A stretch of DNA of 32,000 nt, taken from the NCBI GenBank assembly GCA_963698035.1, contig OY969114.1, forward strand, positions 510,001 through 542,000. The letters are read 5' to 3'. The notes under the pieces are model-generated. The model did not search any database. It worked only from the letters and a program-made list of their open reading frames with translations, and was not told the DNA's origin. The stretch is from Candidatus Saccharimonadota bacterium. GTDB taxonomy: Archaea; Micrarchaeota; Micrarchaeia; Micrarchaeales; Micrarchaeaceae. Position 1 is the first letter of the stretch; every line of letters begins with the position of its first letter. Of this stretch, positions 1-25,659 are shown piece after piece. The translations under genes were made by a program, and so were the position numbers.

Positions 1-843
1 AACGATTCGCTGAATCGCCTCTGTGCTACTCCTGAGTTCGAGGACTTTACATACACGCTGGGTTTCTTTGACATCCCAGAAGCAGAGTTAAATGACATCG
101 AGGGACGGAAACAAAATCTTCAGGAAGTCAGAGGTATGTTTAGCAAGCATCACACAATCGAGGAGATAAAATCCGAGATTATCAAATGTTATACCGACCC
201 TAATAACAAGGGAAGCCACAATCAAGCAATATGGACAAGCCTGCCTCTCGATAGCGTAGAAAAGCGCTCGATAGGGGACACTACAACCTACAAGATAAAG
301 ATTGCAGGACGGGAGATGGCGCTTACCAGCATGAAGCTCCTCGATTCAAAGAGTTTCAGGGCAAAGTTTCAAGACTTGTTCGGTGTCCAGCTCCCGTTTT
401 GCAGAACTGAATTATGGTCGATGTTTACCCTTTACATAAATTCGTTAATATGTACCGAAGTAGTCAGAGACACAACAAGCGAGCGGGATATGATCAGAGA
501 GAATGTAAAGAACCACATCGAAGGGAGTATCGCTGTCCCGACCTATGACGAAGCTATGAATTCATGGAACAGCATAAGGATAGGCGAAGGCGACAACCTC
601 TACATCTTTCCTAAGCATCTTTTAGAGGGCATTAAAAATCAGGTGGGACGGGAGATAAACGTGAACAACGTTGTCGATGCTATTGCAGATTGGTACATCA
701 CGTCAACTCCACGCAAGTTAAAGGATAATAAAAAGCAGGTGAGGTTCTGGCGATTAAGGAAGAGCGCCTTTGACCTTTCAGGCATCGCACAGGAAGAGGA
801 TGACCGACAAGGCGCTTTAATCGAGAGTGGCGAGCATGAATAA
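1..843 (+). CDS. Hypothetical element protein, 5'-truncated by window edge
   Basis: Frame 1 is open from nt 1, with no stop before the ATG at 136, so the 235-aa track ORF is probably the C-terminal part of a longer protein. Its stop (841-843) overlaps the helicase ATG at 836 (ATGAATAA coupling). No recognisable motif. Confidence 0.5.
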   Translation, partial: NDSLNRLCATPEFEDFTYTLGFFDIPEAELNDIEGRKQNLQEVRGMFSKHHTIEEIKSEIIKCYTDPNNKGSHNQAIWTSLPLDSVEKRSIGDTTTYKIKIAGREMALTSMKLLDSKSFRAKFQDLFGVQLPFCRTELWSMFTLYINSLICTEVVRDTTSERDMIRENVKNHIEGSIAVPTYDEAMNSWNSIRIGEGDNLYIFPKHLLEGIKNQVGREINVNNVVDAIADWYITSTPRKLKDNKKQVRFWRLRKSAFDLSGIAQEEDDRQGALIESGEHE

Positions 844-2428
844 GACAATAATCTATGGTATTGCTGGGTCGGGTAAGACTGCAAAGATAATAGAGCTTAT
901 CCGTACACGACATCCTGACAGGCTAGGCGAGTGCTGTGTAATCAGCTTCTCAAGGTCGGCTGTACGCAACCTTAGGGAGCGAATAGGGGTAAACAACGCC
1001 AAGGAAGAGTACGACCGCAAGGATTTAGAGGGGTTTAGGACGATTCATAGTATTTGCTCAAGGTTAATGGAGTTGAGCAAAGAAATATTTTTGACAGAGG
1101 GAGACATCGAGAAGTTTATGGAGCAAAAACACATAGATTTCAAACAAGAGGACGAGCTGTACGACGAGCAGAGCGATGGCCAGCGCCTTCTTTCATTAAT
1201 CGACTACATAAGACACACGCAAGTAAAAAGCATAGATAACTTGAGCGCCAGAGACCTGCATCTTCAGATAGGGTACTATCTGGCGCAGTATGGCCACTTC
1301 GACAAAATCATAGCGGACGTTCAGATAATTCGAGACTTGATACAAGCATACGAGGACTATAAGAAAGAAATCGGTAAGCTCGACTATACTGACATCCTGT
1401 TATTGTACCTAAGCAATCCCGTACAAACAGGGTATAAAGTTCTTGTAGTAGACGAGTTTCAAGACATGAGTCCGCTTATCTACAAGATCATAAAAACATT
1501 CGAGCAGGGAGCGGACTACGTTTACTACGCTGGCGACCCGAATCAAGCAATCTATACATGGATGGGAGCTGACCCCCACTTCCTAATAGACGAGATAAAG
1601 GATGCTGACGAAGAGATACTGCTCAATAAGTCGCATAGAGTAGCGGATAAGGTCTATGTTGTCGCAAAGGATACCATAAACAGCAACTCGAGGGACAAGA
1701 TAGATTTTGAAATAGAGTGTGTAAACAAAGGGGATGTAAAAAGGATTTCTGAAGACGATGTGGTCAGCATAGCGAAGACGACAGGCGCTTCAGGGACGAC
1801 CTACATACTGGCTCGTACCAACTGGATGAAGAGACGCATACTAAAGGCGCTTATGCAAGAGGGGGTCGAATTTTCAGAGATAAGCGGAAATAAGGTATGG
1901 ACAATTAAGTTAATCAACATAACCAACGCTCTCTTATCGATAAAGAACGGGACAGCGCTCAAAATCGACTGGCTGAAGGCCTTTATCGATGTAGTACCAT
2001 CAAAACCATACCTGAAGCATGGGGTAAAGAAAAACCTGAAAGAGCAGTTTAAGGATAAGCAGGAAGTCGAAATAAAGGAGCTGTATGGCGCTGTGTTTGA
2101 TGTAAAGCACAACCCTGCGGAGTTCTTGAGCGGACTTGAGACCCTGAAGGTCGATAAAGATAGGGTAAACATTATCCGCAATAAAATCGCCAGAAGCCCG
2201 TCCCTAATCCCAGAGAAGCCACCTATAAGTGTAGGTACAATCCACTCCGCAAAGGGACTGGAAGCGGATAACGTAATTCTGAATCTCAACCTTAGCGCAA
2301 AGATACAGCGAGGGTTAACAAACAAGACCATCAGGGAAGCAGAAGCCAGAATCTTTTACGTTGCGTTTACCCGTTCAAAATCTGATGTATGGGTATATGG
2401 TCATAATCAAATACTCAAAGGTGTTTAG
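836..2428 (+). CDS. Superfamily 1 (UvrD/Rep/PcrA-like) helicase
   Basis: Walker A GIAGSGKT, motif II VVDEFQD, motif III YAGDPNQAIY, motif V ILARTN, and motif VI TIHSAKGLEADNV with FYVAFTRSK. ATG 836 is preferred over the track's GTG 827. Confidence 0.8.
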   Translation: MNKTIIYGIAGSGKTAKIIELIRTRHPDRLGECCVISFSRSAVRNLRERIGVNNAKEEYDRKDLEGFRTIHSICSRLMELSKEIFLTEGDIEKFMEQKHIDFKQEDELYDEQSDGQRLLSLIDYIRHTQVKSIDNLSARDLHLQIGYYLAQYGHFDKIIADVQIIRDLIQAYEDYKKEIGKLDYTDILLLYLSNPVQTGYKVLVVDEFQDMSPLIYKIIKTFEQGADYVYYAGDPNQAIYTWMGADPHFLIDEIKDADEEILLNKSHRVADKVYVVAKDTINSNSRDKIDFEIECVNKGDVKRISEDDVVSIAKTTGASGTTYILARTNWMKRRILKALMQEGVEFSEISGNKVWTIKLINITNALLSIKNGTALKIDWLKAFIDVVPSKPYLKHGVKKNLKEQFKDKQEVEIKELYGAVFDVKHNPAEFLSGLETLKVDKDRVNIIRNKIARSPSLIPEKPPISVGTIHSAKGLEADNVILNLNLSAKIQRGLTNKTIREAEARIFYVAFTRSKSDVWVYGHNQILKGV

Positions 2429-2496
2429 AATATCAATAATCCCTTATATATGGAGAAAATCATACAATCATACTAAAAATAACCATAAGTTCGGTA

Positions 2497-2646
2497 TAAT
2501 ACTACGCCTTACTACATCTCTACTACGCCTTACTTATAGAGGAATAACCTCTATAACTACGCTTACTACATCTACTACTCCCGAAAATCGAGACATGCCT
2601 CAACTTTCCCCATATATAGCGTATTTTGGTGTAGTACGTAGTAGAG
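2497..2646. repeat. Iteron-like direct repeats plus inverted repeats in the element's main intergenic region
   Basis: ACTACGCCTTACTAC occurs at 2501-2515, ACTACGCCTTACTTA at 2522-2536, and ACTACGCTTACTAC at 2556-2569. A perfect 8-bp inverted repeat TATAGAGG/CCTCTATA lies at 2535-2542 and 2548-2555. CTCTACTACG (2518-2527) has an inverted copy CGTAGTAGAG at 2637-2646. Confidence 0.65.
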
Positions 2647-2680
2647 TCTATTTTCATAAAAATTATACCGAGCGGATAGT

Positions 2681-2857
2681 ATGAAAACTCAACAATACCA
2701 AACACAACAAAGAGCGCCATACGGCCGTTGCGTATGCAGTGGTGAGTATAAGCGTGCTGAGGACTGCGACCTAAGAGAGCCAGATTACTTCGTGGTCGGA
2801 GACATCATCAAGCCATCAACGATTATCTGTTCGAAATGCTGGAGAGTACGGAGATGA
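2681..2857 (+). CDS. Small Cys-rich (CxC...CxxC) zinc-ribbon-like protein, 58 aa; below the ORF-track cutoff
   Basis: Manual translation gives MKTQQYQTQQRAPYGRCVCSGEYKRAEDCDLREPDYFVVGDIIKPSTIICSKCWRVRR. An A/T-rich box (ATAAAAATTATA, 2657-2668) lies about 15-25 nt upstream. The stop is 4 nt before the next ATG at 2862. Confidence 0.35.
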   Translation: MKTQQYQTQQRAPYGRCVCSGEYKRAEDCDLREPDYFVVGDIIKPSTIICSKCWRVRR

Positions 2858-2861
2858 TACT

Positions 2862-3083
2862 ATGAAATGTAGCGTATGCGGAGAGGTTCTTGGAAAGTGT
2901 GATAGATGTGGCCTGAACTTCAGGCTCAATCAAGTGGTCTATTGCAGGCCGTATACTTTTGGGTATCAATCTGCAAAGCTCCACTACTGCGAAGACCGAA
3001 TCGCAGGTCATCCGCTTGATGCTGAAAGAGGGAAGGCTCTCGGCAAAGACCATGAAAAACTTATGATAAGGGAGATAAAATGA
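2862..3083 (+). CDS. Small zinc-ribbon protein
   Basis: The N-terminus CSVCGEVLGKCDRCG has CxxC...CxxC spacing. The stop overlaps the next start (ATGA at 3080). Confidence 0.45.
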   Translation: MKCSVCGEVLGKCDRCGLNFRLNQVVYCRPYTFGYQSAKLHYCEDRIAGHPLDAERGKALGKDHEKLMIREIK

Positions 3084-3466
3084 CGAAAACAAATCGAGAA
3101 GGGATCATAATCTTCGCATCCAGCCTCAAGGAGCTGGGATACGATTGCGGTAATCTACTTGAGATCGCATACGAACTCAGGAAGCATGACGAAGCTCACC
3201 GGTCTAACTTAACCGGTATGCTCTACGACTGGCTTCATAGGTATTACTGGACAGCGCTCCAGGCTCAAGAACGTGCTGTATCACAAGAGCTTCATGGTAA
3301 GGCTTCTGATGTAGCACGTGCTACACATCCATCGAGAGAAAATGTAGCACAAAACCTTCAGAACGACGAGCCGAAAGATACCTCTTCCTCTAAATACAAT
3401 ATTACAAGTGAATCCGATAATAACGAAAATGTGATACAGGGCAGGCCTGCATCACAAGAGGGATAG
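3080..3466 (+). CDS. Hypothetical protein
   Basis: ORF with start/stop coupling to both neighbours. No motif recognised. Confidence 0.45.
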   Translation: MTKTNREGIIIFASSLKELGYDCGNLLEIAYELRKHDEAHRSNLTGMLYDWLHRYYWTALQAQERAVSQELHGKASDVARATHPSRENVAQNLQNDEPKDTSSSKYNITSESDNNENVIQGRPASQEG

Positions 3467-3467
3467 T

Positions 3468-3701
3468 ATGACGAACCATGCGCACAGATACCTTTACAAT
3501 ATCCATGTAAACATTCAACGGGGCTGGTCTCAATACTCGCTTTACTTTTATGTAAGCGGTATCTCAGCAATCATCGGCGGTTTCTTTAAGCTGGCCGGCA
3601 TCGGAGCTTTCATATTTACGCTGGCCTTCTTTTACCTGGCTGGAAGGATGCATAAGCGAATAAACAACGTGATGGTAAATGAAACAACGCAAGAAGCATA
3701 A
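3468..3701 (+). CDS. Small membrane protein (two hydrophobic segments)
   Basis: Hydrophobic stretches ISAIIGGFFKLAGIGAFIFTLAFFYLAG. The ORF is adjacent to the previous stop. Confidence 0.4.
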   Translation: MTNHAHRYLYNIHVNIQRGWSQYSLYFYVSGISAIIGGFFKLAGIGAFIFTLAFFYLAGRMHKRINNVMVNETTQEA

Positions 3702-3975
3702 GATAGTAGTCCATGAGAGTCGTACACATGGAGAGATAATAGAGCGCAAGTGGTATGCGGAGCTGTACGACATCCTGAAGCAATCCTTTAAAGCAAAGGC
3801 AGAGGTCGAGGTATGGATCGATAGTGATATGGTAAAGGGTAAGGTTAAAGGTTTCGGGAAAGCTTGGGTATCTATGGAGACCGATGACGCTGTGATCTTT
3901 ATACCTCAGGCTGATATTAAGCGTTTGCAAGTCCGTACAGAAGAGAAGCGAACAGGAATGAATTATGTTAGGTAA
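3679..3975 (+). CDS. Hypothetical protein
   Basis: ORF in the operon context, overlapping both neighbours by a few codons. Confidence 0.4.
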   Translation: MKQRKKHKIVVHESRTHGEIIERKWYAELYDILKQSFKAKAEVEVWIDSDMVKGKVKGFGKAWVSMETDDAVIFIPQADIKRLQVRTEEKRTGMNYVR

Positions 3976-4423
3976 TCGTATGGATATACAACAAGAGCAA
4001 GACCAAGAACGCAGGTCGTATATACGTTCAAGAGTATACGGCCTGAGACTTGATGAACCTTTATTTGAGCTTTTGACTGCTTGCAGGCTTAAGGGGATGA
4101 ACGCCAGAGCCTTTAATGATCAGATGAAGCGCTGTATGTGGGGATATCTGAATGACTTTAGGAAGGTTAAACGTTTACGGCAATTACCTTCTCTCGAATC
4201 GCTGATGAGCGATAGTGTTAATACAGATGCGGACAAGGGTGATAGGATACCTTTTGCACTAAAACAGGTATCTTCAGATGATAATAGTAGATTCATTCAA
4301 ATTCAAACCAAAGGATACCTTAATTTACCACAAGGACAGGTAAACACAGCATCGGAAGGACAATCAGAGCCAGATAGCGAGCAGGAAGAGGATACCGGTG
4401 AGCCTGATGAGGCTGAGGGATGA
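3965..4423 (+). CDS. Hypothetical protein with possible RHH-like N-terminal region and acidic tail
   Basis: The strand-helix-helix-like pattern RVYGLRLDEPLFELLTACRLKGMNARAFNDQMKRCMW is only weak support. The C-terminus is acidic (SEPDSEQEEDTGEPDEAEG). The stop overlaps the next start. Confidence 0.4.
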   Translation: MLGNRMDIQQEQDQERRSYIRSRVYGLRLDEPLFELLTACRLKGMNARAFNDQMKRCMWGYLNDFRKVKRLRQLPSLESLMSDSVNTDADKGDRIPFALKQVSSDDNSRFIQIQTKGYLNLPQGQVNTASEGQSEPDSEQEEDTGEPDEAEG

Positions 4424-4758
4424 GTATGCTGGACGAGACGTTTAACTTTACGATTGATTCGAAGCTCAAGAAGAGATATCAGATCCTCAGGGCCAGCTAT
4501 GACATCGCTCCAGGCATCATGGCTAAGAGATTGAGGGAGTGCTTCGAAGCTGTGCTTACCGAATTGGAAGGCTCTGTAAAGAAGCCTAAGGACTCCGCTA
4601 AGCCAGAGATATCATCTGCGATCCCTTCACCAATCGAGATACCTAAAGGGTTGGATGTTAAATCTCTGGAATCATCTATCACTATCAATTATGTTCCTTC
4701 TCCAGAGATCGCTCCTGCGGAAAGTCCGCAAAGTCCAAAGGCGGATAGAGGATGGTGA
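4420..4758 (+). CDS. Hypothetical protein, possible RHH-like DNA-binding fold
   Basis: The pattern FNFTIDSKLKKRYQILRASYDIAPGIMAKRLRECFEAVL resembles beta-alpha-alpha. The ORF overlaps the integrase start. Confidence 0.4.
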   Translation: MSMLDETFNFTIDSKLKKRYQILRASYDIAPGIMAKRLRECFEAVLTELEGSVKKPKDSAKPEISSAIPSPIEIPKGLDVKSLESSITINYVPSPEIAPAESPQSPKADRGW

Positions 4759-5378
4759 TGATGGACAACCTTCCAGCAATAGCAAAGAGCAAAGCAATAC
4801 GGCGCTGGGATAGAGCGAAAGCTCCTAAGTATCTCAGGCCAGATGAGATCAAAGCCATCCTCACCTTTGAATACAACAAGAGAAGGAAGGATGAGAAGCT
4901 CAGCCGTAATCTGAACAAGTATTACGTTCTCTTCTCTCTGCTATGGAATACTGGCGCTCGCATCAGCGAAGCCCTGTCCCTTATCGCTGATGATGTGAAG
5001 CCAGATCACCAGGTCTATTTCAGGACTCTGAAGAGAAGGATGGACGCAAGCAGGTATATACCTATAAGCGACTCGATGTATTCCGACCTTACCAGGTACA
5101 TGAACGAGAGCGCCATGAAAGGATCTGATAGGCTCTTCGATTTGAGCAAGGTCGCTGTCCATAAGGAACTCAAGAACGTATGCCGGCAAGTAGGCCTTCC
5201 TTCCTGGATTCATGTCCATACCTTCAGGCATAGCTTCGCTGTGAACTGCCTATCGAATAACGTTCATATCAATACGCTCAAGGAGATACTGGGACATGGA
5301 AGCGTTGAGAACACTATGATATACCTGAAGGTCTTCCAGCCAGAGATACGAGACCAGCTATCCAAAGTCCCGTTCTAA
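4752..5378 (+). CDS. Tyrosine recombinase / integrase (short, catalytic domain only)
   Basis: Catalytic signature: NTGARISEAL (Arg), HTFRHSFA (His-x-x-Arg), LGHGSVENTMIYLKV (His and Tyr nucleophile). At 208 aa it has no separate N-terminal core-binding domain. Confidence 0.85.
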   Translation: MVMMDNLPAIAKSKAIRRWDRAKAPKYLRPDEIKAILTFEYNKRRKDEKLSRNLNKYYVLFSLLWNTGARISEALSLIADDVKPDHQVYFRTLKRRMDASRYIPISDSMYSDLTRYMNESAMKGSDRLFDLSKVAVHKELKNVCRQVGLPSWIHVHTFRHSFAVNCLSNNVHINTLKEILGHGSVENTMIYLKVFQPEIRDQLSKVPF

Positions 5379-9002: not shown

Positions 9003-9077
9003 GGGTCTGTAACTCAGTTTGGCTAGAGTGGCAGGCTTTTAACCTGTAAGTCGGGGGTTCAAATCCCCCCAGACCCG
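9003..9077 (+). tRNA. tRNA-Lys (anticodon UUU), no intron, CCA not encoded
   Basis: Manual cloverleaf: acceptor GGGTCTG/CAGACCC, D stem ACTC/GAGT, anticodon stem GCAGG/CCTGT with loop CTTTTAA, T arm GGGGG-TTCAAAT-CCCCC, discriminator G. Confidence 0.85.
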
Positions 9078-10378: not shown

Positions 10379-10386
10379 TCTAAATA
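10379..10386 (+). promoter_or_regulatory. TATA-like box upstream of tRNA-Ser
   Basis: TCTAAATA is centred about 29 nt upstream of the tRNA 5' end at 10412. Confidence 0.35.
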
Positions 10387-10411
10387 GCATTCTGGTTCAA
10401 TATAGTAAGAT

Positions 10412-10524
10412 GCCAAGGTGGCGGAAACCGGTAACGCGTGCGCCTGGAAAACCTTCCAGGAAGCGCATGGCCTTCGGGCCTTCTGGGTTCAAATGCTGCA
10501 AAGCTGAATATCCCAGCCTTGGCG
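10412..10524 (+). tRNA. tRNA-Ser (anticodon GGA) with two introns: 12 nt at 37/38 (10450-10461) and 17 nt at 59/60 (10494-10510)
   Basis: Acceptor GCCAAGG/CCTTGGC plus G. D arm GCG-GAAACCGGTAA-CGC. Anticodon stem TGCGC/GCGCA with loop CTGGAA|A after intron removal. Class II variable arm GGCC-TTCG-GGCC. T stem CTGGG/CCCAG. Both insertions fold into 3-nt bulge / 4-bp helix / 3-nt bulge geometry, and the predicted cuts restore a 7-nt anticodon loop and a TTCAAAT T-loop. Mature length is 84 nt. Confidence 0.8.
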
Positions 10525-10539
10525 TCTTGATTTGATTTG

Positions 10540-11190
10540 ATGGCAGACGAAAAGGCAGAAGAGTCGAAGGCGGCGCCGGAGGCGAAGGAGCCGAAGCAGC
10601 AAGCGCAAGGCCAGGCTCCGCCATCGCAGCCCAGGGCGCAGAAGAAGGAGGCGAGGCCCCAGCAACAGCAGAAGGCAACCTCCATAATAAGGATTGGAGG
10701 AAAGGACATAGACGGCGACCTGAACATAGAGAGAGCGCTTGCCGAGATAAAGGGAATAGGGAGCAACCTCTCGCATTCGATATCATTCGTCGTAGAGACG
10801 AAGCTCGGCATACCCAAGAGCACCGCTCTCGGATTGCTATCAGAGGAGCAGATAGAGTCTATAGAGGCGGTGATAAAGGAGCCGTCAAAGTACGGCATAC
10901 CGAGTTACATGCTAAACCACAGAAAGGACATGGAGACCGGCAAGGATGTCCATATAATAGGGAACGACCTCACCTTTGCGATAAGGCAGGATGTCAACAG
11001 GAGCGTTATCATGAGGGCTTGGAAGGGCTACAGGCACCAGCATAGCCAGAAGGTGCGCGGCCAGAGGACAAAGTCGACCGGCAGGACCGGCGCGACGATA
11101 GGTGTCATGAAGAAGGCAGCAAAGCAGCAGATGGCTGCAGCGCAGCAGGAGAGGGGCAAGGAGGCAGCTCCGGCGGCTGCAAAAAAGTGA
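10540..11190 (+). CDS. rps13: 30S ribosomal protein uS13 with K/E/Q/A/P-rich N-terminal extension
   Basis: The core IIRIGGKDIDGDLNIERALAEIKGIG...WKGYRHQHSQKVRGQRTKSTGRTG is typical uS13. ATG 10540 is preferred over TTG 10537. Confidence 0.9.
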   Translation: MADEKAEESKAAPEAKEPKQQAQGQAPPSQPRAQKKEARPQQQQKATSIIRIGGKDIDGDLNIERALAEIKGIGSNLSHSISFVVETKLGIPKSTALGLLSEEQIESIEAVIKEPSKYGIPSYMLNHRKDMETGKDVHIIGNDLTFAIRQDVNRSVIMRAWKGYRHQHSQKVRGQRTKSTGRTGATIGVMKKAAKQQMAAAQQERGKEAAPAAAKK

Positions 11191-11194
11191 TTTA

Positions 11195-11755
11195 ATGGGA
11201 GCTCCAAAAAGGAACCGAAGGAAGTACGAGAAGCCCAAGGAGATATGGAGCACCGAGAGGATCGGAGCCGACAACGCCCTCAAAGATGAGTACGGCCTCA
11301 AGAACATGAAAGAGCTGTGGATCGTCCAGACAAGGGTCAGCAGGGCTAGGAGGAATGCAAGGGAATTTCTCTCGGGAGGCTCTTCAGGCGCTCCCTCCGA
11401 GGAGCAGGCGATGATAACCAGGTTTGCGAAGTATGGGATAACACAGAGCAACGCCACGCTCGACGACCTCCTCGACCTGAACTCAAAGTCGTTCCTTGAG
11501 AGGAGGCTCCAGTCGGTAGTGATGAGAAAAGGGATGGCGAAGAGCATGAAGCAGGCCCGCCAGATAGTAGTTCACGGTTTCATATCGATAAACGGCAAGA
11601 GGGTGAACAGGCCCAGCTACCTTGTAAGCCTTGACGAGGAGAAGGGCATAGGCTACTACAAGCCGATACAGATAATGCAGGTGCAGGCATCGCAGGCCGC
11701 AGCAGCGCCGCAGGAGACAGCTGCGCCCGCAGCGGAAGGCGCACCAAGCGAATGA
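11195..11755 (+). CDS. rps4: 30S ribosomal protein uS4
   Basis: N-terminus GAPKRNRRKYEKPKEIW and an S4 RNA-binding domain (RRLQSVVMRKGMAKSMKQARQIVVHGFISINGKRV). Confidence 0.9.
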   Translation: MGAPKRNRRKYEKPKEIWSTERIGADNALKDEYGLKNMKELWIVQTRVSRARRNAREFLSGGSSGAPSEEQAMITRFAKYGITQSNATLDDLLDLNSKSFLERRLQSVVMRKGMAKSMKQARQIVVHGFISINGKRVNRPSYLVSLDEEKGIGYYKPIQIMQVQASQAAAAPQETAAPAAEGAPSE

Positions 11756-11764
11756 TGATTATTT

Positions 11765-12259
11765 ATGGCGAAGAAAGCTGAGGTAAAGAAGCAGGCTCCA
11801 ACGGCAGAGCAGAAGAAGGAGAAGGACATCTCCTATGAAGCCAAGGCAATGGAGGAGCCAAAGGTAAAGCCGCGCGCTGAGCGTATAGGGGTCGTCCATG
11901 TCTTCTCATCGAAGAACGACACCATAATAACATTGACGGACATGAGCGGCGCGGAGACCGTGGCTGTAGGTAGCGGCGGCATGGTCGTGAGCGCGGACTC
12001 TCAGGAGGGATCGCCGTACGCCGCAATGCAGGCCGCGTATAAGGTGGCTGCGGCCGCGAAAGAGAAGGGCGTAACCAACATAATAATAAAGATAAGGGCG
12101 CCGGGAGGCCACAACTCCAAGACGCCCGGTCCCGGAGCGCAGGCGGTAGTCAGGGTGCTTGCGAGAAGCGGCATGGTGGTGAGCAGGATAGAGGATGTAA
12201 CCCCGATACCGACAGATACCACAAAGAGGCCGGGAGGCAGAAGGGGAAGGAGGGTATAG
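11765..12259 (+). CDS. rps11: 30S ribosomal protein uS11
   Basis: [19 protein letters not shown]...[10 protein letters not shown]...[30 protein letters not shown]...DVTPIPTD...GGRRGRRV. Confidence 0.9.
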
Positions 12260-12792: not shown

Positions 12793-12800
12793 TTAATAAA
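12793..12800 (-). promoter_or_regulatory. TATA-like box upstream of the LAGLIDADG gene (would give a leaderless mRNA)
   Basis: On the minus strand TTTATTAA is centred about 25 nt upstream of the ATG at 12772. Confidence 0.3.
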
Positions 12801-12855
12801 TACTGCACCTATCTGAGCATCTATCGTATGTTTAATGTCCAAAAGAAAATGGTGC

Positions 12856-12886
12856 AGTCTTGAGGTTTAATGGGAGGCTCCAACGC
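12856..12886 (-). other. 3' half of 16S rRNA processing stem
   Basis: AGTCTTGAGG (12856-12865) is the exact reverse complement of CCTCAAGACT (14471-14480). GAGG..CCAACGC (12874-12886) pairs with GCGTTGG..CCTC (14450-14462). Both halves lie about 38-68 nt outside the mature ends. Confidence 0.6.
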
Positions 12887-12923
12887 TTCCTTTTGTGCAC
12901 ATAATTGGAAAACAAAAGTTTTC

Positions 12924-14411
12924 CGAGGTGATCTATCCGCAGGTTCCCCTACGGATACCTTGTTATGCCTTAGCCCTCCTCACAGAACCTTAACTCGAAA
13001 GCATCCGAAAGATGCTGCCTCACTAGGGCCCCACTTGGGTGACTTGGCAGGCGGTGTGTGCAAGGAGCTGGGACATATTCACCGCTCGATAGTGACAAGC
13101 GATTACTAGGGATTCCAGCTTCATGAGGGCGAGTTTCAGCCCTCAATCCGAACTTGGGTTGGTTTTAGGGGATTGGCTTCCCCTTTCGGTGTTGCATCCC
13201 ATTGTGCCAACCTTTGTATGCCGCGTGTAGCCCTGGAGATTCAGAGCATACTGACGTACCGTTGCCCTCTCCTTCCTCCTCTTTAAACAGAGGCGGTCCC
13301 GACAGAGTGCCTGATTCATCGCTGAACCAGTGGCAACTGTCAATGAGGGTCTCGCTCGTTACCGGACTTAACCGGACAGTTCACACCACGAGCTGACGAT
13401 CGCCATGCACTACCTCTCGGCTCGTCAGGTAAGATCTTTAGTCTGGCCTTCACACTGCCGTCGCTCCAGGTAATATTTCCGACGTTGAATTCAATTAAAC
13501 CGCAGCATCCACCCCTTGTGTGCTCCCCCGCCAATTGCTTTAAGTTTCAACCTTGCGGCCGTACTCCCCAGGCGGCAGACTTAACAGTTTCCTACGGTAC
13601 TGCAAACATTCGAGATATTTGCAACACCAGAGTCTGCATAATTTACTGCTAGGGCTACTCGGGTATCTAATCCGATTCGTTCTCCTAGCCTTCGCTCCTC
13701 ACTGTCGGATGCGTTCTGGTCAGGCGCCTTCGCCACCGTTAGTCCTTATAGGATTATAGGATTTTACCCCTTCCCCATAAGTACTCCTGACCTCACCCGC
13801 TCCCTAGCCGATAGGTATCTCATGCACGCATTGATGTTGAGCACCAATATTTCACACAAGACGGTTTCGGCCAGCTACGAGCGCTTTAAGCCCAATAATC
13901 GTGGACACCACTTGTGCTGCCGGTATTACCGTGGCGGCTGCCACCGGTCTTGCCCAGCACTTATTCGCCAAGCTTGCTATACTTGGCAAAAGGTTCACCG
14001 AAGTGAACCACTCAGATTCCCCCCATCACGCTTCCGCGCATTGTGGAGTTTGCGCGCCTGCTGCACGCCGTAGCGCTAGGGCCCTTGTCTCAGTGCCCTT
14101 CTCGGGGCTCTATACTCTCATATCCCCTACGGGTTATAGGTATGGTGGGCCGTTACCCCGCCATCTGCCTGATCCGCCGCAGTCTCATCGTAAAGCGGTA
14201 ATGCTCCAATTCGTCACCTTTTGAGCTACTGACTCCTTCCAGGTGTCCATAGCCTATGGCGTATTAGCCTCAGTTTCCCGAGGGTATCCGCCTCTTTACG
14301 GTAGATTGACCACGTGTTACTGAGCCGTACGCCGCCCAACGAAGTCGTTGAGCTGACTTGCATGGCTGTCGAAATCTGATAGCAGTGTCCTCCAGCAGCA
14401 TCGACTGGAGT
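12924..14411 (-). rRNA. 16S (SSU) rRNA, archaeal, about 1.49 kb, no linked tRNA-Ala or 23S in the window
   Basis: The 3' end reads ...AAGGTATCCGTAGGGGAACCTGCGGATAGATCACCTCGG on the minus strand. The 5' end reads ACTCCAGTCGATGCTGCTGGAGGACACTGCTATCAG. Conserved blocks such as GTGGCAGCCGCCACGGTAATAC (530 loop) are present. End coordinates are accurate to a few nt. Confidence 0.9.
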
Positions 14412-14449
14412 CGATCTGTGGAATTGCCGCTTATTTCTAAAGCAATTGT

Positions 14450-14480
14450 GCGTTGGTTCCTCTTTGCATTCCTCAAGACT
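14450..14480 (-). other. 5' half of 16S rRNA processing stem
   Basis: Complementary to 12856-12886, as described for that feature. Confidence 0.6.
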
Positions 14481-14576
14481 ACATCCAATTCCAAGCAGGA
14501 ATTTTCACCAAAGATGCCCCATAATAGGTTGGGCAAACTGAAAGAAAATAAAGCAGGTATTATTATCCCGGAAACC

Positions 14577-14688: not shown

Positions 14689-14721
14689 TCCATGCTCCGT
14701 TCATTCTAGCAGTTGATTCTG

Positions 14722-16986
14722 ATGGGCCCTAGGCATAGGCGTAGCACTGCCGGGCAGCAGTCAGCAATAGAATTGCTCAGCACATATGCGTGGGCATTCA
14801 TAATAGTGGCACTGCTCGTTGTAGCGATAGGGATTTACTTAGGAATTGCACCCAGTTCGCAGCTTGTATCCTCTCAGTGCAACATACAGCCACTGCTCCC
14901 ATGCCCGCAGACCCTCCTAGCGCACACCGCAGTGGCTACGCAGGCGGTCTACAAGATGCTGATGGTAAATAATCTTGCGCCTTATCTCTACTTCGCACCA
15001 AACACATTTGTCGTTACTGTGACAAATGCAGGCGTAACATCTGGCAACTATACAGGCAGCTGCACACCCTATCTCACGGCGAAGGGCGATGAGGTGATAT
15101 GCCAGGCGAACCTGTCGACATCCAACTTGCCATCTTTGGGCACATCCGCCAACATAAACTTCAAGGTGCAGTACCAGATATGCAGCACTGCAAATGTGAT
15201 GCAGTGCCCAAGCGTGATATACACGACAACGGGATACTCGCTGCAGGCGGTTACACTGTCGCCGCCCAGTCTATACACTCTTACGCTCGCTTCATCCCCG
15301 AATACTACGCTTGTGATAGGGCAGCAGAGATACTCTGCAGGGAGTACGATATACCTACCGCTGGGAAGATACACCCTCTTCGCGATAACGCCCGCAGGCT
15401 ACATCTTCAGTTCCTGGACCTCTAGCGGGGGAGCTTCAGCCCTATCTTCAACAGCACAGAACACCACCCTCACACTTTCATCAAACGGAATGATTAGCGC
15501 AACATTCTATGTGCAGACAATCAGCACCACAATCTCCACTACAATCTCCACCACCCTCGGCTCCTCCATCTCTACCTCAATCTCCACATCCATCTCCTCA
15601 ACATCCATCTCCTCCACTTCCATCTCTTCCACCTCCATCTCCACTTCAATCTCCTCAACATCCATCTCCTCCACTTCCATCTCTTCCACCTCCGTCACTT
15701 CCATCTCTTCCACTTCCATCTCCTCCACCACCCTAAAATCCTCCTCCACCACCCTAAAATCCTCCACTTCAATCTCCACCTCCATCTCCTCAACATCCAT
15801 CTCCTCCACTTCCATCTCTTCCACCTCCATCTCCACTTCAATCTCCTCAACATCCATCTCCTCCACTTCCATCTCTTCCACCTCCGTCACTTCCATCTCT
15901 TCCACTTCCATCTCCTCCACCACCCTAAAATCCTCCTCCACCACCCTAAAATCCTCCACTTCAATCTCCACCTCCATCTCCTCAACATCCATCTCCTCCA
16001 CTTCCATCTCTTCCACCTCCATCTCCACTTCAATCTCCTCAACATCCATCTCCTCCACTTCCATCTCTTCCACCTCCGTCACTTCCATCTCTTCCACTTC
16101 CATCTCCTCCACCACCCTAAAATCCTCCTCCACCACCCTAAAATCCTCCACTTCAATCTCCACCTCCATCTCCTCAACATCCATCTCCTCCACTTCCATC
16201 TCTTCCACCTCCATCTCCACTTCAATCTCCTCAACATCCATCTCCTCCACTTCCATCTCTTCCACCTCCGTCACTTCCATCTCTTCCACTTCCATCTCCT
16301 CCACTACCACCTATCAAACAACCTCAATTTCGAGTATATGTGCCTGCGGCGGTCTGTACCTTCTCTGCAGCGTGGCACAATGCTCTGGCTGCCCCGCCTC
16401 GTGCCCATCCACGGATATTGGAAATCCACAGCCCCAATGTCCCACCCTAGATGAGTGGGGTTGCGTATGCACTGGCGGTGGCTGTAGCTCTGGCTCCACC
16501 ACCGTAACCGTGACAATATTCACCACAATAATAACATACACCGTTACCACCATCAACACCGCCAGCTCATCGTTCCTGGGATCCACACTAGTGCTCATGG
16601 CCGACGGCTCCTATCAGCAAATCGCCACTATAGAACCCGGTGATATTGTGATGTCTTATGACCCGGCAAATCACAAAATGTATCCAAACGTTGTTTTAGC
16701 CGTTCCTGTATTCGAGATAGGCGGCACCTATACAATAAACAACAATGTAACGACGGACGGGTTTGAGGCATTCTATGTCCTGCGCAATGGAACTTACACA
16801 TGGGTGCACACTTCGAACCTGACAGTGGGAGACCAGATATACGACCCATTAACCGGCTCTTCCCTGAGGGTTAACAGCATAAAGATTAAGAATCTCGGTT
16901 GCATATGCGGACGGGTCTATGACATAATCGGGGCATCCGGTAATAATTTCATAGTGAAGGGTGGGTATCTAGCCGATAAATTGTAA
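14722..16986 (+). CDS. Surface protein: class III (archaeal type IV pilin-like) signal peptide + globular domain + S/T/I tandem-repeat stalk + Cys-rich segment + C-terminal Hint domain
   Basis: N-terminus MGPRHRRSTAGQQSAIELLSTYAWAFIIVALLVVAIGIYLGI. One frame stays open through the repeats. The C-terminal 137 aa carry Hint block A (FLGSTLVLMADGSYQQIATIEPGDIVMSYD) and block F/G-like VYDIIGASGNNFIVKGG. ATG 14722 is preferred over the track's TTG 14713. Confidence 0.75.
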   Translation: MGPRHRRSTAGQQSAIELLSTYAWAFIIVALLVVAIGIYLGIAPSSQLVSSQCNIQPLLPCPQTLLAHTAVATQAVYKMLMVNNLAPYLYFAPNTFVVTVTNAGVTSGNYTGSCTPYLTAKGDEVICQANLSTSNLPSLGTSANINFKVQYQICSTANVMQCPSVIYTTTGYSLQAVTLSPPSLYTLTLASSPNTTLVIGQQRYSAGSTIYLPLGRYTLFAITPAGYIFSSWTSSGGASALSSTAQNTTLTLSSNGMISATFYVQTISTTISTTISTTLGSSISTSISTSISSTSISSTSISSTSISTSISSTSISSTSISSTSVTSISSTSISSTTLKSSSTTLKSSTSISTSISSTSISSTSISSTSISTSISSTSISSTSISSTSVTSISSTSISSTTLKSSSTTLKSSTSISTSISSTSISSTSISSTSISTSISSTSISSTSISSTSVTSISSTSISSTTLKSSSTTLKSSTSISTSISSTSISSTSISSTSISTSISSTSISSTSISSTSVTSISSTSISSTTTYQTTSISSICACGGLYLLCSVAQCSGCPASCPSTDIGNPQPQCPTLDEWGCVCTGGGCSSGSTTVTVTIFTTIITYTVTTINTASSSFLGSTLVLMADGSYQQIATIEPGDIVMSYDPANHKMYPNVVLAVPVFEIGGTYTINNNVTTDGFEAFYVLRNGTYTWVHTSNLTVGDQIYDPLTGSSLRVNSIKIKNLGCICGRVYDIIGASGNNFIVKGGYLADKL
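15570..16305 (+). repeat. Tandem repeat, 192-bp unit x about 3.8, near-identical copies, in-frame coding (64-aa S/T/I unit ending TTLKSSSTTLKSS)
   Basis: The marker ACCCTAAAATCC recurs at 15730, 15922 and 16114, exactly 192 nt apart. By eye the flanking sequence matches base for base. The unit is built from a 15-nt S-T-S-I-S sub-repeat. Confidence 0.9.
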
Positions 16987-17009: not shown

Positions 17010-17858
17010 ATGGAACAGGGCAATGAAGCAGCAAATGAGAATTACAATACACAAAAGGTCCCGGATACGAAGACATCTCAGGGTCCTGTTGCCCTGCTGG
17101 GCCCCCCCGCAGCCACGAAACCACTAAAGACGTATGCCGCCGCCATAGTCATAGTTGTTGTAATGTTGGCAATCGTATTTACCGCAATATCTCTAAATTT
17201 CATACATTTAACTACATCTACAACCTCTACAACCTCCGCACCACCCCCCGCAAGCACAACCATCTACAGCAACCCAAACTACACCGCGCATATCAACAGA
17301 ATACAAAGTTTCCTTAACACCGCATCGCTTCCGGTAGGCCCAACCTATTATGTTCTCAACCCCTACCTGCAGCCAATCCCAGAATGCAACTTTAGCGGAT
17401 GGGAAAAATGGTACATAGAAAATGGATTCTCGGACAACTCGGCATTGTACCAGAACTACTCAAAACTTAACCAGAGCATCCCATTTGCATGGGAGGTCAT
17501 AATCGGGTTTTCTAATACGACAAAAGCCTACAACGCTACGATAAACGGAAATGGTGGGTACTGCTCAAGCATTATACATAATGTGACCCTCTTATCATCT
17601 TTTACATCTTCTAAACAGAGGTTCTATAACAACGCAACGGGTTACCTTGTCACGTTCACAAACTTCACCAGTGCTGGGTTGAACCTGACAAACAGCTACT
17701 ACATAGGACCAAAGCCTAATCTTGAATGGTCCTTTTCTATGGTAAACTACAATGGCATATGGATACGTGTGGCTGCATGGGGATTCTACAACGAAATAAA
17801 CGAATCGCAGCTCATAAACTGGACAAACATAACTGCAATGCTTTATAGCACCTCATAA
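17010..17858 (+). CDS. Membrane-anchored extracellular protein, Thr-rich linker, dense N-glycosylation sequons
   Basis: A single TM (AAAIVIVVVMLAIVFTAISLNFI) follows a roughly 40-aa cytoplasmic head. A TTSTTSTTSAPPPASTT linker and about 13 N-x-S/T sequons follow. No homolog recognised. Confidence 0.6.
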   Translation: MEQGNEAANENYNTQKVPDTKTSQGPVALLGPPAATKPLKTYAAAIVIVVVMLAIVFTAISLNFIHLTTSTTSTTSAPPPASTTIYSNPNYTAHINRIQSFLNTASLPVGPTYYVLNPYLQPIPECNFSGWEKWYIENGFSDNSALYQNYSKLNQSIPFAWEVIIGFSNTTKAYNATINGNGGYCSSIIHNVTLLSSFTSSKQRFYNNATGYLVTFTNFTSAGLNLTNSYYIGPKPNLEWSFSMVNYNGIWIRVAAWGFYNEINESQLINWTNITAMLYSTS

Positions 17859-17890: not shown

Positions 17891-18451
17891 ATGAAAAGAA
17901 GACAAATAGCATTCGTCGTATCCTTTGCAGCATTGATTATAGCTACAGTTATCTTCTCACTCGTATATATTGCTGTTAACCTGCCATTTTCAAAGTTGCC
18001 AGATTTGTCTAATTATGGGTTTTTATCGCATAACTATACCACGGTTTCCAACAGCTGCGAGAACATGCATGACTTAAATTTGACCGTCATCTGCGTCGAG
18101 CTCCTCAGCCCTTCCTCCAACAGCATAGCCCTGCCCCCAAAAATTGTATTTTCATATTATCTGTTTGGCAACAAAAACAGTGCTGATGCATATATTATCA
18201 GCGCCACCAAGTATATTGACACGTCCGCTGTAAATAACTCAGGGAGTGGGCATGCATTTTTGTATTCAATACAATCGTTTGTCAACGGCGATAATTCAAC
18301 AACCACATATTCGCAGGATGGCAGTTCGGTATTTGAAGTTAGCGTCCTCCACAACCTCTCACAGTCCCAATCAAATGTGGATAATATAGCATTTAACCTT
18401 ACCGATGCTCTCTGGCAGACCCAACCAACATTTCAACCTTTTTCGAGGTAG
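17891..18451 (+). CDS. Signal-anchored extracellular protein with N-x-S/T sequons
   Basis: N-terminus MKRRQIAFVVSFAALIIATVIFSLVYIAV is a signal anchor. Several sequons are present. The gene is AT-rich and same-strand, 33 nt after the previous gene. Confidence 0.55.
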   Translation: MKRRQIAFVVSFAALIIATVIFSLVYIAVNLPFSKLPDLSNYGFLSHNYTTVSNSCENMHDLNLTVICVELLSPSSNSIALPPKIVFSYYLFGNKNSADAYIISATKYIDTSAVNNSGSGHAFLYSIQSFVNGDNSTTTYSQDGSSVFEVSVLHNLSQSQSNVDNIAFNLTDALWQTQPTFQPFSR

Positions 18452-19156: not shown

Positions 19157-19441
19157 CTACCTCTTCTTCGATATCCCCGCCTTCAGCTCCTTTACATTGT
19201 CCCTTATCCTCTCGACCGCTGCCTCCAGTGCAGTTGATGCGCCCTTCTTCACTGTCTTTATCACGAGTATTGGCTTCCCCACATCGGGGTGCTCCTTCGA
19301 TACCCCCGCGAAGCTCACATCCCCGTCCTGAAGCAGCTCGTGCACTATCAGGTCCGGCAGGGTTATGTCCCCCAAATCGAACTCTATGATAAGCTCCTTT
19401 GTCTCGTTCTTGATTACCTTTATATCCATCAAATCAACCAT
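19157..19441 (-). CDS. rpoL: DNA-directed RNA polymerase subunit L (Rpo11/Rpb11-like)
   Basis: KVIKNETKELIIEFDLGDITLPDLIVHELLQDGDVSFAGVSKEHPDVGKPILVIKT matches the RpoL pattern, and the length (94 aa) fits. Confidence 0.8.
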   Translation of the reverse strand: MVDLMDIKVIKNETKELIIEFDLGDITLPDLIVHELLQDGDVSFAGVSKEHPDVGKPILVIKTVKKGASTALEAAVERIRDNVKELKAGISKKR

Positions 19442-19442
19442 A

Positions 19443-20087
19443 CTACGAAAACAGCTTTTTTATCTCTTGCGGGTTGTTGTAGTAGATGCTGACCTTCTTG
19501 TGCTCTGCCCTCCTGCAGTTGTCGCACAGGAGCACGCCCGGCCTGTCGCCCTTCTTCATCTGCTGCCCGCAGATTTTGCACCAGGAGTAAACCACCCCGG
19601 TCTCAGGCCCTCCAAGCCCCAGCACGTAGATGTCGGTCTCCTCCGCTATCACCCTCGCTATTATAGTATCACCAGTTCCGCAGGGTCTCTCCTCACTCTC
19701 TCCTCCTCTTTCCCTTCCACGGTCCATCCTTCCGCGATCCATCCTGTCGTGCATCATCCTTCCGCCGCCGAACCTGTCATCCCTCGACCTCATTATTATC
19801 TTGCCGTCCTTCGGTGCAAAGTACTCCCTGTTCTTCGATGTTATGTTGTCTATGTTCACGAATACAACCTTCTTCATGTCGTCCGCCACAGTCCCCAGCA
19901 CGAGCATGTCCCTGGCGAACTTCCTTATCTCCTTTATCGGGACTACGCTTATCTTCCCGTCCTTTATGAACTGCATGCCTGTAGCAGACGCAAAGATGCT
20001 CCCATCCTCCACATAGGTGTTGTCAGAGGGGGCGTATTCCTCCTCTGTCGACAGCCTGTCTCCCGGGTTTACGAACCTCTCATCCAT
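19443..20087 (-). CDS. csl4: Exosome complex RNA-binding protein Csl4 (with RG/RM-rich insertion)
   Basis: N-terminus VNPGDRLSTEEEY, an S1-like core and a C-terminal zinc ribbon CKICGQQM...LLCDNCRRAE. It is adjacent to rpoL, as in many archaea. Confidence 0.8.
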   Translation of the reverse strand: MDERFVNPGDRLSTEEEYAPSDNTYVEDGSIFASATGMQFIKDGKISVVPIKEIRKFARDMLVLGTVADDMKKVVFVNIDNITSKNREYFAPKDGKIIMRSRDDRFGGGRMMHDRMDRGRMDRGRERGGESEERPCGTGDTIIARVIAEETDIYVLGLGGPETGVVYSWCKICGQQMKKGDRPGVLLCDNCRRAEHKKVSIYYNNPQEIKKLFS

Positions 20088-20095
20088 ATTATCAA

Positions 20096-20758
20096 CTATC
20101 TATTTTTCTCCTCTATGAGCACCGAGTTCTTCATCGACGCCTCCTTCCTGAGCGCCCTGTAGACCGCTAGCAGCGTGTTGTACTTCGCCCTTGTCCTCCC
20201 CCTCGAGAAGCTCCACAGGTCCTTCACGCCCGCGAGCTCCAGCATCTTCTTTACCGGTTTGCTGGCCACCACGCCCAGCCCTCTCGGCGCCGGCTTGAGT
20301 ATCACCTCCACGCTTGAGCACTTGCCCTTCACAACGATTGGTATGCTGTGCGGCATCCCGCACATGCACTGCCACGAGCCGCATCCGAATATCACGGGTA
20401 TTACCTTCGACTTCGCGTTCTTGATCGCCCGGTCGATTGCCGCCCTAACCTCTACCTCCTTTCCGCTACCGACCCCTATGTGCCCTCTGCCATCCCCGAC
20501 TATCGCCGTGACCCTGAACTTGGCCTTCCTGTTGTTCTTCGTCATCCTCTGCGTGCTGGCGATCTCTATGACCTCGTTCTTGAGGTCTGGTATGAGCGCG
20601 TCTATTATCTCGGTCTCCTCGATGTGCTTCCCCTCATGGAATATCTGCTCTATGGAGGTGACCTCGTGGCTCTTTACGCGCTTGCCGAGCTCGGTCTTCG
20701 GCTCCCACGCGTTTATGTCGAACTTCGGTTCCTCATCTCTCCTTGGTCTATTCTCCAA
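20096..20758 (-). CDS. rps5: 30S ribosomal protein uS5
   Basis: FRVTAIVGDGRGHIGVGSGKEVEVRAAIDRAIKNAK...LKPAPRGLGVVA...LAGVKDLWS. Confidence 0.9.
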   Translation of the reverse strand: MENRPRRDEEPKFDINAWEPKTELGKRVKSHEVTSIEQIFHEGKHIEETEIIDALIPDLKNEVIEIASTQRMTKNNRKAKFRVTAIVGDGRGHIGVGSGKEVEVRAAIDRAIKNAKSKVIPVIFGCGSWQCMCGMPHSIPIVVKGKCSSVEVILKPAPRGLGVVASKPVKKMLELAGVKDLWSFSRGRTRAKYNTLLAVYRALRKEASMKNSVLIEEKNR

Positions 20759-20762
20759 CTAA

Positions 20763-21305
20763 TCACTCCAGTACCTTCCTCTTCACGCTCTCGAAGAGCG
20801 TTCCTATGTTTGAAATATCTATATTGTCCTTCGAATATCTTGAAAACTGCGTTCCCTGCGCCTTCCCCCCTTTTGCGTATTCCGAGATGTGGCCTCCCGA
20901 AAGCCTCTTCTCATCGATCTCTATGCTATTTATCAGCTTTATGCCTCCGTCTGAGACTCCCCTCGCTCCTGCAAACACCACAGACGACCTTACCGGTTTG
21001 TAGAGCCCCACGTCGAGCACAGCCTCGCTCTTTACCGCCTCTTTGCCCTTCTTTGCAAGAAGGAGCCCTGTCAAGTATGCTGTGGGTATGTTCACCCTCG
21101 ATGGCCAGCCCAGCTTCACCAACTCCCCCGACTCTGCCGATGCGAGCACCCTGTCGCCCTTCCTTTCATACGATACCACTTGGATGAGTATCCTCCTATT
21201 GCTCCTCCTCACCACTATCCGTGGCAGGCCGCTCTTCAGCAGAGCCATTCTCCGCTTGTAGTTCGTCTTCGCGCTCCTCTTCCTCGCTTTTATGTGCCTG
21301 TACAT
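20763..21305 (-). CDS. rpl18: 50S ribosomal protein uL18
   Basis: RRMALLKSGLPRIVVRRSNRRILIQVV, plus position between eL19 and uS5. Confidence 0.9.
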   Translation of the reverse strand: MYRHIKARKRSAKTNYKRRMALLKSGLPRIVVRRSNRRILIQVVSYERKGDRVLASAESGELVKLGWPSRVNIPTAYLTGLLLAKKGKEAVKSEAVLDVGLYKPVRSSVVFAGARGVSDGGIKLINSIEIDEKRLSGGHISEYAKGGKAQGTQFSRYSKDNIDISNIGTLFESVKRKVLE

Positions 21306-21312
21306 ATAATCA

Positions 21313-21786
21313 TCAGATATGCCTCAATTTCGCTGCCCTCTCCTCTGTCATGTTGATTCCCTTGCTCCTGATGTGGTTTATCAGGGACCACTTGTTCGCA
21401 AATGTGCCTCCCTTGACAAGGAGGTAGAACCTCTTGAATGTCTGGTTGTCGATTGTCTTGTCGTTCTTTAGTGCCTTGAGGACCCTCCTCTGGCCGCGCA
21501 CCCTCTTCTTGTAATCCACGCTCATCCTCGTCTTCGCCGTGCCCCTCCTGCTTCCGGAGCCCCTGCCCCTCCCCATCATCTTCTTCGCACGCGCTATCTT
21601 AGCCCTCCTACTTACGTTGTGCTTCTTCAGCAGGGCGTAGACCTTGCCCGACTTGACCATCTCCCTCACATCGTCTGTAGTGAGCGCCTTCTGGGCGTCT
21701 GGTACCGCATCTTTCTTTATCCTTACCTTGCTCTCGCCCCTCTGCATTATCCTTGCAGCTGCCCTCCTGGTGAATTTGATGCTCAT
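21313..21786 (-). CDS. rpl19e: 50S ribosomal protein eL19
   Basis: RRAAARIMQRGESKVRI...GSRRGTAKTRM pattern, plus gene order. Confidence 0.9.
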   Translation of the reverse strand: MSIKFTRRAAARIMQRGESKVRIKKDAVPDAQKALTTDDVREMVKSGKVYALLKKHNVSRRAKIARAKKMMGRGRGSGSRRGTAKTRMSVDYKKRVRGQRRVLKALKNDKTIDNQTFKRFYLLVKGGTFANKWSLINHIRSKGINMTEERAAKLRHI

Positions 21787-23082: not shown

Positions 23083-23233
23083 ATTTCTTGAATCCGAGCT
23101 TCGGGGCCACCTCACGGAAGCATCTTCTGCACAGCTGCAGATGGTGCGCCCTTATGAGGCCGCGCGGGCCGCCGCAGAGGCGGCACTTCCTCGTGCCCTT
23201 GCCCCTGAACTTTTCTTCGTTTCTTACCTTCAT
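23075..23233 (-). CDS. rps14: 30S ribosomal protein uS14 (zinc-binding type), 52 aa; missed by the ORF track
   Basis: Manual translation gives [52 protein letters not shown], with the CxxC...CxxC motif. It sits in the canonical slot between uL5 and uS8. Confidence 0.85.
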
Positions 23234-23238
23234 AAATA

Positions 23239-25642: not shown

Positions 25643-25659
25643 TTCTCAATGTTACTCCT

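Follow-up and report, generated by a model that had tools for sequence, protein, structure and literature searches.

Can a 113-nucleotide (nt) stretch of archaeal DNA that standard tRNA finders pass over be a working tRNA gene, interrupted by two very short introns? The question is raised by positions 10412-10524, on the plus strand, of a 32,000-nt stretch of contig OY969114.1, the whole of which is called the window here. What lies here is very probably a functional tRNA-Ser(GGA) gene of class II, from a Candidatus Micrarchaeota archaeon, with two protein-spliced archaeal introns, as judged from the sequence and its relatives. The original prediction, made from the letters of the window, had proposed this identity with an 84-nt product and had warned that standard finders often miss such genes. 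The warning was borne out, as ARAGORN gives no valid call for the unspliced gene with its intron mode on or off, and the Rfam model RF00005 has no match to it at the gathering threshold, with just a 13-bit partial tRNA match at E <= 10.

The precursor consists of three exons on the plus strand, and the coordinates all match the sequence. The 5′ exon (10412-10449) holds the 5′ strand of the acceptor stem, the D arm with a 3-bp stem, the 5′ strand of the anticodon stem and loop positions 32-37 (CUGGAA), with the anticodon GGA at 10446-10448. The middle exon (10462-10493) continues with position 38, the 3′ strand of the anticodon stem, the variable arm, the 5′ strand of the T stem and T-loop positions 54-59 (UUCAAA). 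The 3′ exon (10511-10524) supplies U60, the 3′ strands of the T and acceptor stems and the discriminator base G73 (10524). The stems are fully formed, with 7 bp in the acceptor stem (GCCAAGG 10412-10418, CCTTGGC 10517-10523), 5 bp in the anticodon stem (TGCGC 10439-10443, GCGCA 10463-10467) and 5 bp in the T stem (CTGGG 10483-10487, CCCAG 10512-10516). The variable region (10468-10482, 15 nt) includes an arm of the form GGCC-TTCG-GGCC (10469-10480), whose stem of 4 bp closes a UUCG loop. The gene lacks an encoded CCA, the triplet TCT lying directly 3′ of G73, and CCA is therefore presumed to be added post-transcriptionally.

Intron 1 (AACCTTCCAGGA, 12 nt, 10450-10461) lies at the canonical position 37/38 and has a relaxed splicing motif, and intron 2 (TGCTGCAAAGCTGAATA, 17 nt, 10494-10510) interrupts the T-loop at position 59/60, a non-canonical site, and has a strict one. 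Deletion of both in silico leaves 84 nt, which ARAGORN calls tRNA-Ser(gga) and whose minimum free energy (MFE) structure is a cloverleaf (-38.8 kcal/mol), in agreement with the identity and length foreseen. Cutting at the bulge positions, after the second bulge nucleotide on each side, restores a canonical tRNA with an anticodon loop CUGGAAA and a T-loop UUCAAAU, each of 7 nt, just as had been claimed. A long variable arm and G73 are identity features of class II tRNA-Ser, and the gene has a long variable arm with a stem of its own, G73 and the serine anticodon GGA. The fold of the unspliced precursor is also more stable than those of shuffled sequences (z = -3.4).

A check of the SPLITS type had been proposed, and it was run over the whole window as a SPLITS-like scan, in which every candidate resembling a bulge-helix-bulge (BHB) was spliced out and the product passed to ARAGORN. 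From 7718 BHB candidates a new tRNA emerged solely at the tRNA-Ser(GGA) locus, which was thus recovered; the other junction-spanning match came from one candidate that overlaps an ordinary tRNA-Lys(UUU) gene (9003-9077) at its 5′ end. The scan found no further intron-containing tRNAs in the window, and four shuffled windows put through it gave zero tRNAs. With the retention of the architecture in 86 distinct orthologues, described below, this excludes a chance origin of the two-intron tRNA.

The BHB described for intron 2 is present in all its parts. A central helix of 4 bp (TTCA 10488-10491, TGAA 10505-10508) follows the T stem and is flanked on opposite strands by two 3-nt bulges, AAT (10492-10494) on the 5′ side and TAT (10509-10511) on the 3′ side, and an inner helix (GCT 10495-10497, AGC 10502-10504) closes a GCAA loop. 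This is the strict form hBHBh′, with helices outside both bulges and a 4-bp helix between them. Thermodynamic folding, which had been suggested as a check, supports it, since the hBHBh′ fold (-10.2 kcal/mol) comes within 0.3 of the T-arm MFE (-10.5) and the spliced form folds into a cloverleaf.

The closest relatives of the ribosomal protein S13 encoded next to the gene are found among GTDB representative genomes in Candidatus Micrarchaeota metagenome-assembled genomes (MAGs), with 59-79% identity. These belong to the phylum of ARMAN-2, within the DPANN archaea, in accordance with the ARMAN-type lineage that had been predicted. An orthologous tRNA gene was found at 14 Micrarchaeota genome loci, directly upstream of the S13 gene in most, and a metagenome scan with a degenerate pattern, fixing just 5′-exon positions 6-36, gave 104 stretches with an orthologue. 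Many of these metagenome contigs we take to come from peat or wetland, going by unchecked contig and MAG names. Using a parser that demanded paired stems, 113 of 119 matches could be divided into exons and introns, the anticodon and T stems being fully paired and the acceptor stem having at most one mismatch, and these comprise 86 distinct pre-tRNA sequences. The 5′ exon has an identical length in all orthologues. Stem partners on the 3′ side, which lie outside the search pattern, still pair with the 5′ strands, and changes on both sides of a pair are seen at pairs 4, 5 and 7 of the acceptor stem and at pairs 1 and 2 of both the anticodon stem and the T stem. Both G73 and the GGA anticodon are invariant in the 66 distinct mature sequences.

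Intron 1 occurs in 84 of the 86 distinct orthologues, with a length of 11-156 nt (mostly 11-18 nt), and the two orthologues without it, L103 and L123, read CUGGAAA and CUGGAGA. Intron 2 occurs in 69 (13-193 nt, mostly 13-39 nt), and the other 17 have an uninterrupted UUCAAAU T-loop. These empty sites fix both junctions and agree with the positions that had been assigned to the two introns. In the 69 orthologues with intron 2, the central helix has 4 bp in 64, with 3′ strands of the UGAA type, and the inner helix has on average 3.77 contiguous pairs, compared with 0.63 in shuffles (maximum 1.10 of 1000). The inner helices themselves are unrelated in sequence, examples being GCU/AGC, GCA/UGC, CAGC/GCUG, UAAGCUU/AAGCUUA and AAACUCCUGA/UCAGGAGUUU, among others. 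The comparison shows a conserved and structurally constrained gene, in which the intron sequences drift freely while the splice geometry stays. The suggestion that the gene would serve as a lineage marker needs qualifying, as the 59/60 intron is polymorphic within the Micrarchaeota: the 17 sequences mentioned lack it, and so does a Candidatus Micrarchaeum sp. genome (L013), whose tRNA-Ser(GGA) has just a 45-nt intron at 37/38. As a marker of lineage it is therefore not a clean one.

A number of observations weigh against this reading of the locus, most of them concerning intron 1. The original prediction gave this intron a BHB as well, of which the 4-bp helix (CTGG 10444-10447, CCAG 10456-10459), perfect in the window, and the 3′ bulge GAA (10460-10462) stand; the 5′ bulge AAA (10448-10450) does not, as no inner helix closes it, and a strict motif is not formed. 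Thermodynamic folding has A36 and A37 paired to U residues of the intron (P = 0.98 and 0.74), which makes a helix of 6 bp closed by an AACC loop, so that the 5′ splice site lies either in or beside an 8-nt loop or at the end of the 6-bp helix of the MFE fold. Because its 5′ bulge is unclosed, intron 1 is assigned to the relaxed hBH/BHL (bulge-helix-loop) class and not to the full BHB; this is a published motif class (PMC3239211). The orthologues point in the same direction, since the 4-bp helix of intron 1 is perfect in 22 of 84 and has one mismatch, usually at U33, in 60 of 84, which makes it a relaxed substrate. Cleavage of such a motif would depend on an enzyme of broad specificity, which the organism is presumed to have. 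No tRNA_int_endo domain was detected by Pfam in the 40 open reading frames (ORFs) of the window, which covers 32 kb of the genome. As the parser demanded paired stems, the stem statistics given above are also partly selected. A tblastn search of the 874 kb of orthologous loci using a possibly imperfect sequence of Methanocaldococcus EndA as query returned noise only. Since the endonuclease gene does not lie within the window, the enzyme type given here for the organism is drawn by inference from the ARMAN-2 literature.

That literature describes very similar genes, and the gene is of the same kind as the published disrupted tRNAs of ARMAN-2 and the multiple-intron tRNAs of the Thermoproteales. 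In ARMAN-2 (Candidatus Micrarchaeum acidiphilum) 56% of tRNA genes are disrupted, and introns at 59/60 occur in tRNA-Cys(GCA) and tRNA-Pro(GGG) (PMC3239211), the pre-tRNA-Pro(GGG) carrying introns at both 53/54 and 59/60 (Fujishima et al. 2011, PMC3239211). The window gene shares with these the phylum, the 59/60 site, very short introns (13-17 nt), BHB and relaxed hBH motifs and the presence of multiple introns per gene, but differs in being a class II tRNA-Ser(GGA) with the combination 37/38 and 59/60. The epsilon2 endonuclease of ARMAN-2 cleaves in vitro both a relaxed 13-nt hBH intron at 59/60 of pre-tRNA-Cys and a strict intron at 37/38 of pre-tRNA-Ile (PMC3239211). Relative to these tested substrates the arrangement in the window is reversed, with the strict motif at 59/60 and the relaxed one at 37/38. 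A 1.8-Å structure of the enzyme in complex with BHB RNA attributes the tolerance of BHL motifs to an ARMAN-specific loop (PMC12397907).

Thermoproteales tRNAs have up to three BHB or BHL introns each, with non-canonical sites, a broad-specificity endonuclease and evidence of intron transposition (Sugahara et al. 2008 and Fujishima et al. 2010, reviewed in PMC4033280). Multiple introns at non-canonical positions are common to these and the Micrarchaeota gene; the organisms differ, being Thermoproteota as opposed to DPANN Micrarchaeota, as do the enzymes, which are of the (alpha-beta)2 type with a Crenarchaea-specific loop in the former and epsilon2 with an ARMAN-specific loop in ARMAN. Canonical euryarchaeal introns, removed by alpha4 or alpha′2 enzymes, resemble intron 1 in their 37/38 site and in the cut after the second bulge nucleotide. 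However, the strict enzymes need hBHBh′ at 37/38, whereas intron 1 has no inner helix and intron 2 lies in the T-loop, and both would be poor substrates or non-substrates for enzymes of strict specificity (PMC3239211, PMC12397907).

From these comparisons we infer the following pathway for 10412-10524. Transcription would start from a promoter about 30 nt upstream, with probable read-through into the adjacent ribosomal protein genes rps13-rps4-rps11. The precursor would fold with its exon-intron boundaries in BHB-type motifs, namely strict hBHBh′ at 59/60 and relaxed hBH/BHL at 37/38, and the archaeal RNA-splicing endonuclease (EndA/VSEN), expected in the Micrarchaeota to be of the broad-specificity three-unit epsilon2 type, would cut each 3-nt bulge after its second nucleotide and leave 2′,3′-cyclic phosphate and 5′-OH ends, a reaction demonstrated in published work on ARMAN-2 substrates. 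An RtcB-type ligase would then join the three exons, RNase P and RNase Z would trim the ends and CCA addition would give a mature tRNA of 87 nt (84 + CCA). The source organism is thus predicted to possess an epsilon2 endonuclease.

Upstream of the gene, a TATA-like box (TCTAAATAG, 10379-10387, plus strand) lies at -33 to -25 relative to the 5′ end of the tRNA. Across 83 orthologous loci an A/T-rich box is kept at -32 to -25, with an A-rich stretch upstream of it and a second A/T box at -13 to -9, and a TATA-like motif is present at -40 to -22 in 69 of these loci, against 23 of 83 in the control interval of -60 to -42. The pattern resembles an archaeal promoter with a B recognition element (BRE), TATA box and proximal element, and is considered putative. 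Downstream, the genes rps13-rps4-rps11 (10540-12259, plus strand), which have Pfam matches to S13, S4 and S11, begin with an ATG at 10540, 15 nt after the tRNA. A Shine-Dalgarno-like GGTG motif, matching the 16S rRNA 3′ end (...GAUCACCUCGG), is found 6-9 nt before the ATG in loci with a tight gap between tRNA and S13 gene (<=35 nt) and in those with a long gap alike. Since GGTG tracks the ATG, the motif must lie within the mRNA; as it comes right after the tRNA in tight-gap loci, the two would share a co-transcript, with the mRNA 5′ end formed by processing of the tRNA 3′ end. On this evidence tRNA-Ser and rps13-rps4-rps11 are probably co-transcribed. In many relatives the GGTG motif starts 1-5 nt past the tRNA end, and in the window (10525-10542) just a weak UGAU repeat is found there.

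This close linkage raises an alternative to regarding the T-loop intron as a neutral passenger, namely that it has a second role tied to the abutting rps13 operon and is selectively retained, for example by gating tRNA end-processing and release of the co-transcribed mRNA until splicing, or through some other cis signal. Such a role is unlikely, though the distribution of gaps is in its favour. Among 53 loci with intron 2 and S13 downstream, the gap is <=35 nt in 45 and longer in 8, and all tight-gap loci therefore have the 59/60 intron. Of the eight loci (L013 included) that have S13 downstream but no intron 2, none has a tight gap, the spacing being at least 90 nt in every case. A neighbour-joining tree of S13 scatters the loci without intron 2 over four or more positions, two of which adjoin tight-gap, intron-bearing relatives. 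Against this, the tree, built on about 150 aa, has poor resolution, and the counts are uncorrected for phylogeny, so the association may be phylogenetic. In addition, the gap is long or S13 is missing downstream at 21 loci that contain the intron, which means that the intron persists without the linkage.

In a narrower form of this idea, the 59/60 intron would be kept because tRNA-Ser is the 5′ leader of the rps13-rps4-rps11 transcript, the intron linking, or setting the order of, splicing, RNase Z and RNase P processing and mRNA release. This we regard as a little less likely again. If true, the T-loop and elbow would be disrupted until splicing, and intron loss would be possible only where rps13 had gained an upstream region of its own. 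A version with an internal promoter was also considered, in which CTGAATAT in intron 2, about 30 nt before the ATG and similar to the upstream CTCTAAATAG, would be a TATA box for rps13. It is unlikely because GGTG must be transcribed, which would put any TATA box on the 5′ half of the 17-nt intron, a part that is not A/T-rich, and the clear TATA boxes that long-gap loci have about 100 nt upstream also count against it.

The silence of the standard finders would equally be expected of a pseudogene in decay, or of a remnant resembling a tRNA, with insertions that are never removed. This is very improbable given that the exons are conserved with both-side stem changes across the 86 distinct sequences, the introns diverge yet keep their splice geometry, and the promoter box and the placement before rps13 are conserved; nor did ARAGORN or the SPLITS-like scan find any other tRNA-Ser(GGA) in the window. 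Least credible of all is a tRNA-Pro(GGG) with its 12-nt intron two nucleotides further 5′ (removing 10448-10459), which ARAGORN -i returns for the sequence without intron 2 as 'tRNA-Pro (ggg) i(37,12)' or 'i(38,12)', for the gene body shows the class II tRNA-Ser features of an extended variable arm and G73, the shifted splice would give orthologues differing anticodons (GGU in L001, for example) where splicing at 37/38 yields GGA in all 84 with the intron, the 3-nt bulge geometry sets the cut at GA|A, and the intron-less L103 and L123 keep CUGGAAA and CUGGAGA, empty sites that exclude this call as a misplaced canonical intron.

A self-splicing group I intron is rejected, as the introns have 12 and 17 nt compared with a catalytic core of about 100 nt or more, and Rfam intron models had no match in the tRNA-Ser region. 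A split or permuted tRNA gene is likewise rejected, since within 113 nt the three exons are contiguous and in colinear order.

As a doubly interrupted tRNA-Ser(GGA), the gene leaves current understanding as it stands and is new in a modest way, in having a serine GGA tRNA with introns at 37/38 and 59/60 that is spread over many Micrarchaeota lineages with polymorphism in intron presence. As the Candidatus Micrarchaeum sp. genome has just the 37/38 intron, the double-intron form of tRNA-Ser(GGA) may not have been described before. It extends the picture of disrupted tRNAs known from ARMAN-2 to a broad Micrarchaeota radiation, mostly of peat and wetland by the names. It also shows that an essential tRNA can drop out when DPANN genomes are annotated automatically: with ARAGORN and Rfam both missing the gene, the decoder of the serine codons UCC and UCU would wrongly seem absent. 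The 86 natural variants, with introns of 11-193 nt, form a substrate series of strict and relaxed motifs for work on endonuclease specificity.

The intron polymorphism bears on the gain and loss of archaeal tRNA introns, as does one locus with related introns at both sites. In L051 (contig Ga0136652_1002225; identical copy L094) the introns are 47 nt at 37/38 and 52 nt at 59/60 and have in common a near-identical core of 39/41 nt, AAC(C)TTTCTTCGGGTTGCCAAGAAAG(G)TTT..., which suggests that an intron was duplicated or transposed between the two sites and recalls the intron transposition of the Thermoproteales. Long introns are also seen in L041, L050 and L088, which belong to one clade with the acceptor stem GCCGGGG and have introns of 68-156 nt at 37/38 and of 128-193 nt at 59/60; L041 and L050 have a 54-nt segment of intron 1 in common that is 98% identical. 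A Micrarchaeota-type doubly interrupted tRNA-Ser also occurs in L001 (DATJLP010000011.1), labelled Candidatus Acidoferrum sp. (an Acidobacteriota MAG), whose S13 is 73% identical to that of the window; this contig is probably mis-binned.

The S13 protein of the window has an N-terminal extension of about 50 aa (10540-10690) ahead of its Pfam S13 domain, rich in K/E/A/P/Q (MADEKAEESKAAPEAKEPKQQAQ...), which is common to its close Micrarchaeota relatives. Beyond the ribosomal protein genes, an archaeal 16S rRNA gene occupies 12923-14411 on the minus strand with no 23S adjoining it within the window. Its flanks (12793-12917 and 14414-14566, minus strand) are extensively complementary, forming a duplex of -79.6 kcal/mol that resembles a processing stem.

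Upstream of the tRNA genes there is a tyrosine-recombinase gene of the phage integrase family (4752-5378), preceded by small ORFs without Pfam matches (3965-4758) and a UvrD-like helicase gene (827-2428), and the region 827-5378 could represent an integrated element. Attachment-site repeats that would tie the integrase region to tRNA-Lys or tRNA-Ser were looked for and not found. Further along the window, a run of sizeable ORFs, namely 14713-16986, 17010-17858, 17891-18451, 19365-20162 and 20175-20762 (757, 282, 186, 265 and 195 aa), gave no match to Pfam at E <= 0.001 and is adjoined by a gene of the Endonuclease dU family (PF01949, 18598-19149). A ribosomal-protein cluster (20763-25986, minus strand) then codes for L18, L19e, L32e, L6, S8, L5, S4e, L24, L14 and S17, and is headed at its 5′ end by the gene for the RNase P subunit p29 (Rpp29, 25660-25986), a component of tRNA 5′ processing.

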